The notes below the pieces were generated by a model. The model was not told the DNA's origin. It saw only the letters and a list, made by a program, of their open reading frames with translations, and ran no database searches. Positions 3,572 to 46,119 of a DNA stretch of 64,000 nucleotides are shown piece by piece. A program made the position numbers and the translations under genes. Position 1 is the first letter of the stretch. Every line of letters begins with the position of its first letter. The DNA is from Nitrospirales bacterium (GTDB taxonomy: Bacteria; Nitrospirota; Nitrospiria; Nitrospirales; UBA8639): assembly GCA_965247845.1 (NCBI GenBank), contig OZ252040.1, positions 95,615-159,614 on the forward strand, given 5' to 3'.

Positions 3572-4159
3572 ATGATGAGCAGAAAAGTCTTGTTGGGGTT
3601 CGCGATCCTTTCTCTTATTCTTGTGGCAGGCTGTACGTCCAGGATTTCGGATGGTTCCCAAGACTCGACCACGAATGAATTGGCGTTTGGGTATGTTCGC
3701 GTCGAGGCCAAGGGCCCTAATCCGCGTGCGTTTCCAACCAGACTGAGATTTTTTTTCCTGACCAATGAAGAGACCGGAGAACGATTGCGGGTTGACGTGA
3801 ATTCCGAATCGGGCGTGTTTTCCATGAGATTGCCGGCGGGACCGTATTCCATTGACCGTGTGCAATTTAATGCAGGCCCGTTTCAGGTTGAATCCCATGT
3901 GCAATTGACATTTCAGGTGCCCAAAAAGAAGTTGGCCTATTTAGGGGTCTGGCAATTTGAGGTCGAAACGCCGCGCACCGTTCGGCTTGTGCGGATTCGT
4001 ATTCTTGAAGGGGATGCGGAGTTCTCAAAGAAATTTTCTACGGATCTCGGATCGGAACGAGCGCCCATTGAAACGATGTTGCCCAAACCTGATACATTCG
4101 AAACTCGCGTGTTTGCGGTTGACCCTCAACCGAAAGTCAAATATTTCCGTCGTCGATAA
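3572..4159 (+). CDS. Lipoprotein, unknown function
   Basis: N-terminus MMSRKVLLGFAILSLILVAGC (lipobox LVAGC). The antisense ORFs at 3466-3904 lack any such signal. Confidence 0.6.
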   Translation: MMSRKVLLGFAILSLILVAGCTSRISDGSQDSTTNELAFGYVRVEAKGPNPRAFPTRLRFFFLTNEETGERLRVDVNSESGVFSMRLPAGPYSIDRVQFNAGPFQVESHVQLTFQVPKKKLAYLGVWQFEVETPRTVRLVRIRILEGDAEFSKKFSTDLGSERAPIETMLPKPDTFETRVFAVDPQPKVKYFRRR

Positions 4160-4172
4160 ACCGCCGCATAAA

Positions 4173-5207
4173 ATGATGAAACGGGTTTCTATCATCTTGT
4201 TTGGACTCTTGGGTGTCTCTTTCGCGTGTTGGCTGGGCTTAAGCCTGCCGGGCTATGCTGCCGCACCCCATGTGATCAAGCGCGGCCAAATGCATATGGG
4301 GACCCTGGTTTTTCTGACTGCCGTGTCTTCGGACAAACAGCTTGCCCATGATGCCATTGAACAGGGGTTCGCCGAAATTCATCGCTTAGAACTCATCTTG
4401 AGCACGTGGATTTCCGACAGTGAACTCTCACGGGTCAATGCTGCGGCAGGACAACATGTCATCAAGGCCAGTGCGGAAACCATAGAACTCCTGGGGCATT
4501 CTTTAGAAATGGCCCGGCTCACGGATGGGGGCTTCAACATTGCCATCGGTCCGGCCGTAGAGGCCTGGAATATCAGTCGTGAAGGGCGTATCCCGACTCA
4601 GGAAGAATTAGAGGCCACACGTCCTTTCATGGATCTTTCCGCTATTCATCTCAATAAGGACGCGGGCACCGTCTATCTGGCTCGTTCCGGGATGCAGGTG
4701 GATATCGGCGGTATCGGCAAGGGATATGCCGCGGATTTCGCGGCCCGCGTGATGCGGGAAGCCGGTGCCTCAGCAGGCGTGGTCGCCATTTCCGGAGATA
4801 TTAAAACCTTTGGCCGCCTGCCCGATGGCCAACGTTTCGTGTTCGGCATCCAGCATCCTCGAAAGGAGAATGGGATCACGATCGGGCAACTTGAACTCGA
4901 AGATGAGGCTGTTTCCACGGCAGGTGATTATCAACGATATTTTGTGAAAGAGGGCATTCGCTATCATCACATTCTCGACCCTCAAACGCTTCAGCCCGCG
5001 CGTCTCTCTCAGAGTGTGACCATCGTAGCCCAAACCGGTGTTCTCGCCGATGGGCTCGATACCGGAATTTTTGTCATGGGTCCGGAAAAAGGGATGGCGT
5101 TGATTGAACGCCTGCCCGGAGTCGAAGGCGTGATCGTCGCTGCGGACGGAACCGTGTCCGTCTCGTCTGGCTTACAAGGCTGGTTGCAATTGAATCCACA
5201 GCCGTAA
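4173..5207 (+). CDS. apbE: FAD:protein FMN transferase ApbE
   Basis: Start moved to ATG 4173 (signal MMKRVSIILFGLLGVSFACWLGL). ApbE-type motifs DIGGIGKGYAAD, STAGDYQRYF, YHHILDPQT. Confidence 0.85.
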   Translation: MMKRVSIILFGLLGVSFACWLGLSLPGYAAAPHVIKRGQMHMGTLVFLTAVSSDKQLAHDAIEQGFAEIHRLELILSTWISDSELSRVNAAAGQHVIKASAETIELLGHSLEMARLTDGGFNIAIGPAVEAWNISREGRIPTQEELEATRPFMDLSAIHLNKDAGTVYLARSGMQVDIGGIGKGYAADFAARVMREAGASAGVVAISGDIKTFGRLPDGQRFVFGIQHPRKENGITIGQLELEDEAVSTAGDYQRYFVKEGIRYHHILDPQTLQPARLSQSVTIVAQTGVLADGLDTGIFVMGPEKGMALIERLPGVEGVIVAADGTVSVSSGLQGWLQLNPQP

Positions 5208-5639
5208 ACCCTGCCATGTGACAAGGCACGCCTGCTGACGCACAGCACGATCATCACGGTCATGCCTGTCTGGCCTTAGCTGTCATACATAAAGTATCCA
5301 TTTTGCATACTTTTGGCATCTACTTGACTCCTTTTATATACCTTTTAGCGTATATTTAGCACCTTTTTGGAACCATATGGGAAGCGACTGCTCCTGGCCT
5401 CAAGGGGATGGCGCTGGTTTTTAAACAACGAGCGCCTGTAGAAGCAGCGCCTTCCTCTTGATAGATTCTTCGCAATACTCAGGGTGAACTCAGGATAAGT
5501 GCGTTGTGAGGAATGATGTGCATCCGCTCATCTTGTCCCCGACATTTGTTATCGGGGAAACCGCGCGGATGACAGGACGGAAAGCAGCAAGGCCGCGCAT
5601 GGCGGCCCTGCTATGTGTCGAGCGTTGCAACGGAACGAG

Positions 5640-6378
5640 TTAATTCTTGTGTCCGTCGGTTTTTATGTGGCCCTCGGTTCCGGAACTCTTGCTTTTCTTA
5701 CATTCTTTAACTTGGAATAATCGCCGGAATGCTCCTTTTTGCCGCCATGGGACTTCATGCGTTTGTGCATTTTGTCCATCCGTGCTTGTTGTTCCTCGGT
5801 CAGCACGGCCACGGCGTCCCGCGGAGCTTTGATCGACGCCATGTGCAGTTTTGTCATCAAGCCATGTACCGTGTTCATTTGCGTCAATATCCGCAAGCTT
5901 GGTATCTGCAAGCTTGGCATTTTCGTTCCTCAGCAATACATTCTTCGCTATGTCCACGTCGGCCTTCATCCTGATCGGTCTTTCTTATAATTGATCTTGA
6001 GATCGCGAAGCTGTTGGACCTTCGTCCGTCAGACTCATCCCTTCTTGTTCTTCAAGATATGTTTGCAGAATTTCATGACTGCCTGACGTTCGTGCATGGC
6101 GCCGAAACCATGGTCGCCATGCCCTTTCTTAGCCCATTCCAGGTCCTGAAGCGCGCATTGAATGACGGCCTCCGCCGTGTCTCTTATGCATGCCGTCACG
6201 CTGCGAAGACCAGGAATGGTCCCCAGACCCTTTATGCCTGGAGGCGAAGTTTCGAATGCCTACTCTTCGATTCCCCATGCATGGGTCGGTTGGCAAAGGC
6301 CGGACCGGCAGTCAGTAGAAAGACAACGGCCAACAGGGAAATGAAGGGAAACGGGGAACGTGGTGTACAAAACCTCAT
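5640..6378 (-). pseudogene. Frameshifted paralogue of the LTxxQ (Spy/CpxP/ZraP-like) gene at 6796-7521
   Basis: Homology to the 241-aa protein is split over three frames: signal peptide MRFCTPRSPFPFISLLAVVFLLTAGPAFA (from 6378, AGGAGG RBS), MKADVDIAKNVLLRNENAKL and LMTKLHMASIKAPRDAVAVLTEEQQARMDKMHKRMKSHGG. There is a 2-nt deletion relative to the paralogue in the MSLT(E/D) codons. Confidence 0.75.
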
Positions 6379-6565
6379 GTCGATTTCCTCCTTTGAACGG
6401 TCAGATTTATAAAACAATGGTTTGTAAGTCCAGTAGTTGACGAACGCCATGGCTTTCCGCGCAGGTTGCTATGCGCCTTGGTGCGTCAGCCAGCGAACGA
6501 CTTTGTTTATAGCATTGAATTTAATTATCATTACCATAATAAGGCCTTCATGGAAAGTCAAGGTG

Positions 6566-6705
6566 CCGGAATTTTTGTCATGGGTCCGGAAAAAGGGATG
6601 GCTTTGATTGAACGCCTGCCCGGAGTCGAATGGTCCTGCGGATGGAACCGTGTCCGTCTCTTCGGGATTACAAGACCGGTTGCAGATGAGTCCCAAGCCT
6701 TAACC
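6566..6705 (+). pseudogene. Duplicated fragment of the apbE 3-prime end
   Basis: The first 65 nt match 5062-5126 with 1 mismatch (encodes GIFVMGPEKGMALIERLPGVE). A 7-nt deletion and divergence follow. No start codon. Confidence 0.85.
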
Positions 6706-6728
6706 GGCCAGGAGAGGTGTTGTGATAG

Positions 6729-6760
6729 AAAAAAGGGCCGCACTATGCGGCCCTTTTTTA
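6729..6760 (-). terminator. Rho-independent terminator (bidirectional shape)
   Basis: GGGCCGCA-cta-TGCGGCCC stem flanked by an A-run and a T-run, just downstream of the 6796-7521 gene. Confidence 0.7.
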
Positions 6761-6795
6761 TGATGAGAAATTGGTGATGACGCCACTATCTACTT

Positions 6796-7521
6796 TCAGT
6801 GGCCTTTGTTTTTCTTATACTTGGAATAATCACCGGCGCCGGAATGCGCCATATTGCCGCCATGGGATTTAATGCGTTCGTGAATTTTGTCCATCCGTGC
6901 TTGTTGCTCTTCGGACAACACGGTCTTGGCGTCCCGTTTGGCTTTGATTGAAGCCATGTAGAGCTTCGTTTTCAAGGCATGCATGGCGTTCAATTGCGCT
7001 TCGATGTCCGAGAGACTGGCTTTCTCGTTTCTCAAGACTTCATGCAGGTCGATACTGGCTAACTTCACGGCGGCCTTCATCTTGATCCGGGTTTTCTTAT
7101 AATTCGTCTTGAGATCGTGAAGCTGTTGTGCTTGATCTTCCGTTAAACTCATCCCTTCTTTAAATTTCAAAATGTGACCAATGTATTCTCTCGCATCTTG
7201 ATGACGACGAGAATGCGTAGAACCGGAATCATGGCCGCCATATCCTTCGCCGCCATGTCTCTTTTGCATTCCATCATGGTGGGAAGACCGGGAATAGTCA
7301 CCATGCCCCTGATACGAAGCTTTTGGGTGATGGCCGTCACGGTGCACAGAACCGGATGTGCCATGGGTGGCTGAGCTCGAATGAGCTTTCTTCGAATCTC
7401 CATGCGGCGCTCCATGCATAGAGCTAGGAGGGTCGGCAAAGGCTGGAACGGCAGACAGCAGGAAGAGAATGGTCAACAGGGAAACAGGTGAAAACCAGGA
7501 AGGTGGTTCATGGATCCTCAT
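6796..7521 (-). CDS. Periplasmic LTxxQ-motif protein (Spy/CpxP/ZraP family) with a histidine-rich region
   Basis: Signal peptide (VSLLTILFLLSAVPAFA). His-rich stretch HGAPHGDSKKAHSSSATHG...HRDGHHPKASYQGHGDYSRSSHHDG. Two LTxxQ-type motifs (LTEDQAQQL, LSEEQQARM). Confidence 0.7.
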   Translation of the reverse strand: MRIHEPPSWFSPVSLLTILFLLSAVPAFADPPSSMHGAPHGDSKKAHSSSATHGTSGSVHRDGHHPKASYQGHGDYSRSSHHDGMQKRHGGEGYGGHDSGSTHSRRHQDAREYIGHILKFKEGMSLTEDQAQQLHDLKTNYKKTRIKMKAAVKLASIDLHEVLRNEKASLSDIEAQLNAMHALKTKLYMASIKAKRDAKTVLSEEQQARMDKIHERIKSHGGNMAHSGAGDYSKYKKNKGH

Positions 7522-7703: not shown

Positions 7704-8771
7704 TCACGTATTCCTGTCAAATAGTACCGTGTGGGTGGCAATGACTTTCAATTCCACCTTTGAGTCGAGAGGGAACAATTGGGTCGAGGCTTCGCTGCTG
7801 TGCACGAGATCGCCGGAAGCCAGGCGGATTCCGTAAATCGTCTCCGAGCCTCGAAACTGCCGGGATTCAACGGTTCCGTCTTTGTGATTGGTTCCACAAA
7901 TTTGAATGTCATCCGGTCGAATCATGACCACGACTTCAGGGCCGCCCTGGTAGCCGTTCGGCACCGGGAATGCGCCGAGTTGAGTCACCACGACAGAATC
8001 GTGAATGGTTCCGGGGATGAAGTCGGCGTGCCCCACAAACTCCGCGACAAAGGGCGAAACCGGAAGGTGGTACATGGTTTCGGGTGCTGCGAATTGTTCG
8101 AGTTTCCCGTTATTCAAGACGGCCACATAATCAGCCATGGCAAAGGCTTCTTCATGATCATGCGTGACGAGAACGGCGGTGGTTTGAGTTTTTTTCAACA
8201 AGTGCAGGAGTTCCATACGCATGCGGTAAGTCGTATCGGGATCCAGATTGCTGAACGGCTCGTCCAAAAGGAGCAGTACAGGTTGAGGGGCAAGGGCGCG
8301 TGCCAATGCCGCGCGTTGCTGTTGGCCGCCCGACAGCGAATGAGGGTATCGCCCGGCAAGTGCTGAAAGCCCGGTGAGAGACAGCATCTCGTCAATTCGG
8401 CCTCGACGGTTGTTCGCTGTTGCATGCGGCAACCCGAATCCCACGTTGTCCTGTACCGTCAAGTGAGGAAAGAGAGCATAGTCCTGAAAAACCATGCCGA
8501 CCCGCCGTTGTTCGGTTGGGACGTGCCGATCCGGCGTCGAGACGGTTTTACCGTTCAGCCTGATTTCGCCGGAGGCAACCGATTCAAACCCCGCGATAGC
8601 CCGAAGCGTTGTGGTCTTCCCGCATCCGGACGGCCCTAACAAACAAATGATGTCGCCTTTCTGCGCTGAAAAGGAAATGCCCTCCAGTGCCAAGGCGTCG
8701 GCTTCATACGAGCAGGCCACGTCCTTCAGCTCGAGCACAATGGGCGTATCGTTGGGAGGTCGTTGCGTCAT
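7704..8771 (-). CDS. ABC transporter ATP-binding protein, Fe(III)/polyamine importer type
   Basis: Walker A GPSGCGKTT, signature LSGGQQQR, Walker B LLLLDEP. Start placed at ATG 8771 (MTQRPP...); the upstream ORF extension lies inside a repeat element. Confidence 0.85.
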   Translation of the reverse strand: MTQRPPNDTPIVLELKDVACSYEADALALEGISFSAQKGDIICLLGPSGCGKTTTLRAIAGFESVASGEIRLNGKTVSTPDRHVPTEQRRVGMVFQDYALFPHLTVQDNVGFGLPHATANNRRGRIDEMLSLTGLSALAGRYPHSLSGGQQQRAALARALAPQPVLLLLDEPFSNLDPDTTYRMRMELLHLLKKTQTTAVLVTHDHEEAFAMADYVAVLNNGKLEQFAAPETMYHLPVSPFVAEFVGHADFIPGTIHDSVVVTQLGAFPVPNGYQGGPEVVVMIRPDDIQICGTNHKDGTVESRQFRGSETIYGIRLASGDLVHSSEASTQLFPLDSKVELKVIATHTVLFDRNT

Positions 8772-8783
8772 GCTAAATGAATG

Positions 8784-8840
8784 TGTAGGGCCGCATCTCA
8801 TGCGGCCAACTCCCAGGCGCCATGAGATGTCGCCGCTACA
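8784..8840. repeat. Palindromic repeat, family R3 (TGTAGGGCCGCATCTCATGCGGCC ... GCGCCATGAGATGTCGCCGCTACA)
   Basis: Two inverted copies of a ~24-nt hairpin motif. Related copies at 58495-58550, a half copy at 45756-45779 and a partial copy near 63241-63291. Confidence 0.7.
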
Positions 8841-8955
8841 AAGATATATGTTTACGGCTCAGAGCTTGTCGCCTGCCGAAGGATGACGTCCATGGGCACT
8901 CAGGAAGAGGCCCTAATCCATTTATGAGTAGCTTCTGGCATCTTGCGCGGCGCGG

Positions 8956-45944: not shown

Positions 45945-46086
45945 GGAACCTCTGATTTATTGTGATAGCGGGATACAGGGCAAGGCGTCCCGCAGCGAAA
46001 CCCGAGACATATCAAGTCGATAGGCGAGGGTTGAGCGAGGACACCACACCGCCATGCGCCCGATGGTGCCATAAATCAGAGATTCC
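45945..46086 (-). mobile_element. 142-bp MITE, copy B (inverted relative to copy A)
   Basis: Reverse complement differs from copy A at 5 positions with no indels. Flanked by the direct repeat CTAA/CTAA. Confidence 0.85.
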
Positions 46087-46119
46087 CTAACGGTAGATAC
46101 GGACAAGAGGAGGTGCACA

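Follow-up and report, generated by a model that had tools for sequence, protein, structure and literature searches.

An old partial tandem duplication, probably in late decay, at the apbE-LTxxQ locus of a Nitrospirales bacterium, with signs of recombination through the repeated gene end

The closest described counterparts of the locus reported here are tandem segmental duplications with a truncated-gene relic, bacterial pseudogenes, the conversion, pop-out or Campbell-type reintegration of sequence at direct repeats, and, for the encoded proteins, the Spy, CpxP and ZraP proteins of the Pfam family LTXXQ (PF07813). The locus lies in a 64,000-nt window (the whole stretch of DNA analyzed, G000:C1:95615-159614) of a Nitrospirales bacterium whose genome, designated G000, is a single contig of 2.11 Mb, 99% complete and among the smallest of 38 genomes of the genus; the records of its relatives are titled 'MAG: Nitrospirales bacterium'. 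It comprises the gene apbE, two LTxxQ genes on the opposite strand (copy 1 or c1, beside apbE, and copy 2 or c2) and, between these two, a second copy of the apbE 3' end, termed the relic (coordinates in Table 1). We interpret it, with a probability of roughly 0.8, as an old partial tandem duplication in a late stage of decay that has been reshaped by homologous recombination.

As in tandem segmental duplications with a truncated-gene relic, the boundary falls inside a gene (apbE codon 297), a 146-nt direct repeat is present and one of the duplicates has become a pseudogene; the locus differs in that the duplicate lasted long enough to form a distinct paralogue lineage in several species, and in that the unit has seemingly been moved or replaced between species via the repeat. 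With the duplication-degeneration-complementation (DDC) model, reportedly put forward by Force and colleagues in 1999, it has in common that different parts are kept in the two units after the duplication, whereas the model requires two complete copies losing complementary subfunctions; here apbE was never duplicated whole, no sharing of LTxxQ subfunctions is shown by the two genes, and one LTxxQ copy was simply lost in G000. Deletions outnumber insertions in bacterial pseudogenes, particularly in small genomes, and copy 1 fits this bias with nine deletions and one insertion. The sharp switch in identity along the repeated tail (64/65 to 82%) is what gene conversion or unequal crossing-over between direct repeats would give, while the grouping of the relic with the functional tail of another species and the resemblance of single-copy relatives to collapsed loci recall conversion, pop-out and Campbell-type reintegration, with the difference that the events are read here from sequence mosaics only.

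Copy 2 and the intact orthologues of copy 1 share with the Spy, CpxP and ZraP proteins a signal peptide, an alpha-helical LTXXQ domain and the LTEDQ and LSEEQ motifs. They depart from these proteins by a long, variable, histidine- and glycine-rich N-terminal part, and copy 1 also by a lysine-rich C-terminal tail. The histidine-rich segment recalls metal-binding members, e.g., ZraP. Compared with the genes of the Cpx, Bae and Zra regulons, the LTxxQ gene here instead follows an ATP-binding cassette (ABC) importer. A literature search combining LTXXQ with Nitrospira found nothing relevant.

Junction, age and distribution of the duplication

The order apbE, c1, apbE-tail relic, c2 and ABC transporter gene recurs in five other species, i.e., in G007, G002, G014, L035 and L045, with the same junction. 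All six relics have a common non-apbE sequence (GTCAA..TG) just upstream of this junction, and the apbE piece that follows measures 45-55 codons, or is shorter and decayed (about 100 nt in G002 and G014). Because the non-apbE sequence upstream of every relic is common to all six, a single duplication event is indicated. The c1-type genes form one clade, with support of 100/100 in the protein tree with outgroups and in the DNA tree. The common junction and the monophyly of c1 together indicate that the duplication was a single old event that did not arise in G000. In a census of the 38 genomes of the genus, a c2-type gene was found in all 38 and a c1-type gene in 7, the remaining 31 being single-copy. 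The order of apbE, LTxxQ gene and ABC ATPase gene is kept across the genus, and the ApbE orthologues of all relatives examined are collinear, with amino-acid identities of 72-87%.

The repeat itself consists of two unlike parts. Positions 5062-5126 of the functional apbE tail and 6566-6630 of the relic are identical at 64 of 65 nt, after which 13 nt in apbE stand against 5 nt in the relic, and the remainder (5140-5207 and 6636-6703) is 82% identical; blastn aligns the whole tail with the relic at 85% over 146 nt (E = 1e-42). An earlier note on this window had recognized the recurrence of the tail, with the near-identical first stretch, and had put the deletion at 7 nt; the first part stands, and the net shortening is 8 nt, as the start-to-start spacing of the repeats falls from 1504 to 1496. 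When the two units were aligned globally with MAFFT, the tails came out of register, the two spacers differing in length by 340 nt, and piecewise alignments were used instead. The relic holds ApbE residues 297-344 only, in frameshifted form, and falls short of the coverage expected of an ApbE domain (PF02424), which in the intact protein occupies residues 42-320. The second apbE tail is accordingly a by-product relic that was never a working gene.

The ancestral locus would have had apbE on the plus strand facing an LTxxQ gene on the minus strand across a shared hairpin terminator, the latter gene following the ABC importer, i.e., apbE(+) > terminator < LTxxQ(-) < ABC importer. One event would then have copied a segment that starts at apbE codon 297 and extends as far as the region upstream of the LTxxQ gene, giving a second LTxxQ gene (c1, beside apbE) together with the 146-nt copy of the apbE 3' end as a by-product between the two LTxxQ genes. 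From there c1 would have diverged into a lineage of its own, characterized by the lysine-rich C-terminus and still intact in six other species. The earlier note had proposed a duplication followed by complementary degeneration of the two units. A tandem copy of the apbE 3' end plus the LTxxQ gene, with c1 as a pseudogene, is indeed what we found; the duplication is old (six genomes, one junction) and did not take place in G000, and the complementarity has to be given up, since only the last ~49 codons of apbE were copied and the second tail never was a working gene. The decay of the relic has no functional counterpart for the same reason, and a degeneration of the DDC type is at odds with six genomes that carry only the apbE 3' end at the common junction.

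Taken across the genus, the locus offers naturally occurring stages in the life of a tandem duplicate: six species have two intact copies, one has a pseudogene and 31 have a single copy. The processes at work are textbook biology and not a new type of system. In one of the c1-bearing genomes (G044, locus L039) c1 is still beside apbE (G044:C1:2362330-2362833) and c2 is found ~326 kb off, at 2035505-2036161; a rearrangement has thus split this locus.

The two LTxxQ genes

Copy 2 matches Pfam LTXXQ with 28.7 bits (cut-off 24.3, E = 2.3e-6) over residues 115-214, contains the motifs MSLTEDQAQQL and VLSEEQQARM, and begins with MRIHEPPSWFSPVSLLTILFLLSAVPAFA, in which a signal peptide was read by eye. 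A signal peptide and a histidine-rich N-terminal part precede its LTXXQ domain. It stays far below the thresholds of the specific models for Spy (NF007769, 20.3 bits, cut-off 174) and CpxP (NF007687, 17.4 bits, cut-off 160), as does the c1 protein of G007 for CpxP (21.8 bits, cut-off 160), and the matches to CpxP structures in PDB (3qzc, 3itf) reach only E about 0.3. The claims that copy 2 is intact (a 241-aa reading frame with an LTXXQ match above the cut-off) and that the two downstream genes are paralogues were borne out: c1 and c2 share several blocks of 74-88% identity at a spacing of 1109-1143 nt. Their proteins are about 47-54% identical. Beyond the ribosome-binding site (RBS), c1 and c2 showed no significant homology in their upstream regions (local score 38, shuffled maximum 39).

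Copy 1 of G000 is 92% identical at the nucleotide level to its intact orthologue in G007. Polarized against six intact orthologues, it carries ten indels specific to G000, seven of which shift the frame (up to 13 nt) and three of which do not. The breakage over three frames, the 2-nt deletion within the MSLTDE codons and the internal near-duplication had been described before and all hold, the last consisting of two 15-nt stretches (5888-5902 and 5903-5917). Translated matches of c1 to intact LTxxQ proteins run across TGA, TAG and TAA stops, and from the original start codon nothing longer than a 48-aa stub of the signal peptide can be made. The substitutions specific to G000 number 13 synonymous and 21 non-synonymous, a pattern that indicates relaxed constraint. 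As the other six c1 genes of the genus are all open and, among the 38 genomes, only that of G000 is broken, with frame-breaking lesions of its own in the assembled sequence, c1 is to all appearances a genuine pseudogene, and the only one in the genus. In this lineage numerous small deletions and a single 13-nt insertion would have disabled c1, and the relic has gone out of frame, apbE and c2 remaining intact. For annotation, 5640-6378 should be recorded as a pseudogene and 6566-6703 as an apbE fragment that is no gene; c2 is the sole working LTxxQ protein of its type in G000.

Mosaic ancestry and competing histories

Different parts of the locus are closest to different relatives. On the flanks G011 is nearest, at 93% for the ABC ATPase, 89% for the hypothetical gene hyp195 and 88% for the whole region upstream of c2. 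It is also nearest over a further two 6-kb stretches of the window, where identity is 91-92% with G011 and 83-91% with G007. The ApbE and ATPase trees agree, G000, G011 and G004 grouping at 97/93 in the latter; the loci of G011 and G004 are single-copy, and all other c1-bearing species lie in the sister clade of this group. Within the c1 unit the affinities point to G007. The proportion of synonymous sites that differ (pS) from G007 is 0.035 in the 5' third of c1, whereas the flanking genes have values of 0.24-0.43. Identity is 97-98% over the final 160 nt, and all 187 nt of the non-coding c1 upstream region (6379-6565) are 96% identical to G007 and absent in G011 and the other single-copy genomes. 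The c1 genes of G000 and G007 pair at 98/98, and forcing that of G000 outside the other c1 genes costs 13.3 log-likelihood units (approximately unbiased (AU) test, p = 0.02). The c1 unit of G000 thereby belongs to the G007 type, and c2, the relic and the two flanks belong to that of the sister species G011.

Ancestry changes near 5126/5127 and once more at the relic. In the functional tail, the initial 65 nt (5062-5126) share 97% with the tail of G011 and 98% with the G000 relic, and the last 81 nt are 84% identical to G011 and 89-91% to the tail and relic of G007. The G000 relic and the functional apbE tail of G011 are 93% identical and form a group in the tree (95/82). Conversion of c1 by c2 or the reverse was considered as a source of uneven divergence and ruled out: a comparison of both LTxxQ genes from G000 and G007 gave 66 sites with an orthology-type and 3 with a concerted-type pattern.

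Such a mosaic suggests that species have exchanged sequence by recombination at the repeated apbE tail. Because the tail and the relic are direct repeats, the two would recombine, and the 64/65 tract is best read as the footprint of a conversion or crossover, limited on one side by the junction, where homology ends, and on the other by the 8-nt indel; it would reflect such an exchange and not the age of the duplication. The anatomy, the common junction, the lesions and the similarity mosaic are direct observations, from which we infer the order and direction of the recombination events. We lean towards a history in which recombination within the apbE tail brought in the c1 unit of a G007-like relative, as an insertion or a replacement, the former apbE 3' end of the G000 lineage being stranded as the relic and c1 decaying afterwards. 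More tentatively, the 146-nt repeat might serve as a homology handle and the c1 unit as a cassette that pops out and re-enters, also between species. If this is true, G000 gained or replaced its c1 unit in this way, a relic copy could take over as the functional apbE 3' end once the locus has collapsed, as in G011, and a 'dead' gene fragment would be both a reusable spare part and a recombination site. There are hints at this locus of conversion, collapse and interspecies exchange being mediated by the repeat that a partial gene duplication left behind.

The same mosaic can be approached without any import if the ancestor of G000, G011 and G004 already had the duplication, G011 and G004 collapsed through tail-relic recombination, and G000 kept both copies while c1 decayed, so that the working apbE 3' end of G011 would derive from the relic copy. 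This vertical descent, which we regard as possible but rather doubtful, gains from the sister position of the functional G011 tail to the G000 relic, from the ease with which 146-nt direct repeats should allow pop-out deletion, from the relic-type sequence (CCGGCTT...) that follows the apbE stop in single-copy genomes with short spacers, and from a protein tree compatible with a duplication at the base of the whole clade. It leaves unexplained why a dead gene and its upstream region should be far closer to G007 (96-98% in about 600 nt) than selected flanks are, and why the two c1 genes should pair as they do, and it needs many independent losses, 31 of the 38 genomes being single-copy. In the 848-nt apbE-to-LTxxQ spacer of G011 no remains of c1 were found, only unrelated repeat-like DNA.

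Several observations weigh against the history that we favor, or against its details. The AU-test group was named after the tree had been seen; the trees of the apbE tail and relic rest on 146 nt and are mostly unresolved; and the protein tree has a polytomy where the G000/G011/G004 group splits from the rest, so that a duplication before this split is not ordered relative to one after it. Divergence from G007 is uneven within the c1 unit, with a pS of 0.38 in the middle third of c1 and a spacer 1 that is only 85% identical, and a single clean transfer from a G007-like donor is therefore insufficient. The first 65 nt of the relic, moreover, are of the recipient and not the donor type, for which the import needs an extra conversion step. 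Neither import nor vertical descent accounts for the middle third of c1 or for spacer 1 without further events. Finally, three of the c1 indels are 1-nt changes in short homopolymers (G or A runs) and may be sequencing errors.

These three lesions are also what speaks for an artefact, i.e., for c1 frameshifts produced by sequencing errors or a tandem repeat produced by misassembly, with both LTxxQ genes in reality intact. The earlier note had named such errors as the case that would overturn it, and we find the case barely credible. The other seven lesions are 2-13 nt long, and one of them creates a TAA stop. In the alignment of G000 with G007 the c1 region has 75 gap columns, compared with 1 in 3600-5200 (hyp195 and apbE) and 9, all 3'-terminal, in the ABC ATPase gene, and a generalized sequencing error is not the cause because gaps pile up in c1 while the flanking genes are nearly gap-free. 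Collapse or expansion during assembly is unlikely because the layout recurs in five other, independently assembled genomes, and the genome of G000 is itself a single, nearly complete contig. An exact-protein look-up and two exact-pattern scans of metagenome contigs found no second assembly of the G000 species. Only marginally better is the prospect of a recent duplication in G000 in which one unit lost the LTxxQ gene and the other lost apbE: seen in the window alone, the apbE end and the LTxxQ gene do show a reciprocal pattern of working and dead copies, and the 64/65 tract appears young, but five other species have the identical layout and junction, c1 and c2 belong to separate old clades with proteins only about half identical, and with just 49 codons duplicated there was no second apbE function to lose.

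It is likewise most unlikely that the relic has been kept for a function, be it as a small open reading frame (ORF) for an ApbE C-terminal peptide or as part of the c1 control region, although three of the six relics (G007, L035, L045) retain the frame and the original stop, the ratio of non-synonymous to synonymous differences (pN/pS) among relics is 0.3-0.5 and not 1, and the region from the relic to c1 is highly conserved with G007, as given above. Frameshifts or stops occur in three relics, those of G000, G002 and G014, and 49 residues make no ApbE domain. The relic alignment contains no start codon or RBS conserved across the relic-bearing species, and a small ORF was judged unlikely on this ground. 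The low pN/pS and the kept frames fit repeated conversion from the selected apbE tail, which would account for them without a function of the relic itself.

Features of the locus and its surroundings

Table 1. Features of the apbE-LTxxQ locus and lesions of LTxxQ copy 1, in window coordinates (negative values, deletions; positive value, insertion)
Feature	Position	Strand	Remarks
Hypothetical gene hyp195, 195 aa	3572-4159	+	upstream of apbE
apbE, intact, FAD:protein FMN transferase, 344 aa	4173-5207	+	Pfam ApbE 264 bits, E = 2e-78
Duplicated part of apbE (T), last 49 codons + stop	5062-5207	+	first 65 nt near-identical to relic, last 81 nt of another type
Unit-1 spacer, 432 nt	5208-5639	.	~340 nt longer than unit-2 spacer
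46-nt hairpin repeat in unit-1 spacer	5524-5569	.	85% match to G000:C1:1345290-1345336 (minus strand)
Hairpin below copy 1	5585-5613	.	folds at -24.2 kcal/mol, z = -3.2
LTxxQ copy 1 (c1-type paralogue), pseudogene	5640-6378	-	frame split over three frames
c1 lesion	~6285-6289		-6 nt
c1 lesion	~6251		-11 nt
c1 lesion	~6132/6131		-2 nt; makes TAA at 6131-6129
c1 lesion	~6086		-6 nt
c1 lesion	~6045		-1 nt
c1 lesion	~6022		-2 nt
c1 lesion	~5977		-1 nt
c1 lesion	~5942		-9 nt
c1 lesion	5886-5898		+13 nt
c1 lesion	~5705		-1 nt
c1 upstream region, RBS + probable promoter	6379-6565	-	ends at duplication junction 6565/6566
Relic copy of apbE 3' end (R)	6566-6703	+	frameshifted, net 8-nt deletion after 6630
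Perfect 14-bp palindromic hairpin, A6/T6 flanks	6729-6759	.	inverted repeat, 100% complementary
LTxxQ copy 2 (c2-type), intact, 241 aa	6796-7521	-	Pfam LTXXQ
ABC-transporter ATPase with TOBE domain	7704-8801	-	Pfam ABC_tran + TOBE_2; 182 nt upstream of c2

The hairpin between the relic and copy 2, with folding energies of -21.9 and -23.1 kcal/mol for its two strands and a z of about -6.8, is probably a bidirectional terminator, originally common to the convergent apbE and LTxxQ genes. Rfam returned sub-threshold matches only for this hairpin, and a consensus scan for sigma-70 promoters and terminators gave matches at no more than chance level. The unit-1 spacer is collinear with its counterpart in G007, occurs in part in G001 and is missing from most single-copy relatives; the 46-nt element inside it resembles a member of the short intergenic hairpin repeat families. 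In G011 the 848-nt spacer (L032, 5033-5880) contains repeat-like hairpins, and part of it, 42-72 nt long, also turns up at the loci of G002 and G014.

Copy 2 lies downstream of the ABC importer ATPase gene on the same strand, an adjacency seen genus-wide that hints at a link of the LTxxQ protein with metal uptake. In L035 the ATPase orthologue (7780-8849) is matched in two pieces that meet at residue 59 and may carry a frameshift, and the match to the c2 orthologue is limited to residues 108-233. The hyp195 orthologue of G011 (L019, 1241-1817) is likewise covered by two overlapping tblastn pieces, residues 1-122 and 92-194, which suggests a frameshift or an internal duplication. Elsewhere in the window, at 46000-46091, a stretch of ~90 nt has dozens of copies of 83-94% identity scattered in the genomes of G002, G007, G001, G011 and G004; this genus-wide repeat resembles a miniature inverted-repeat transposable element (MITE) and overlaps a 142-bp MITE.

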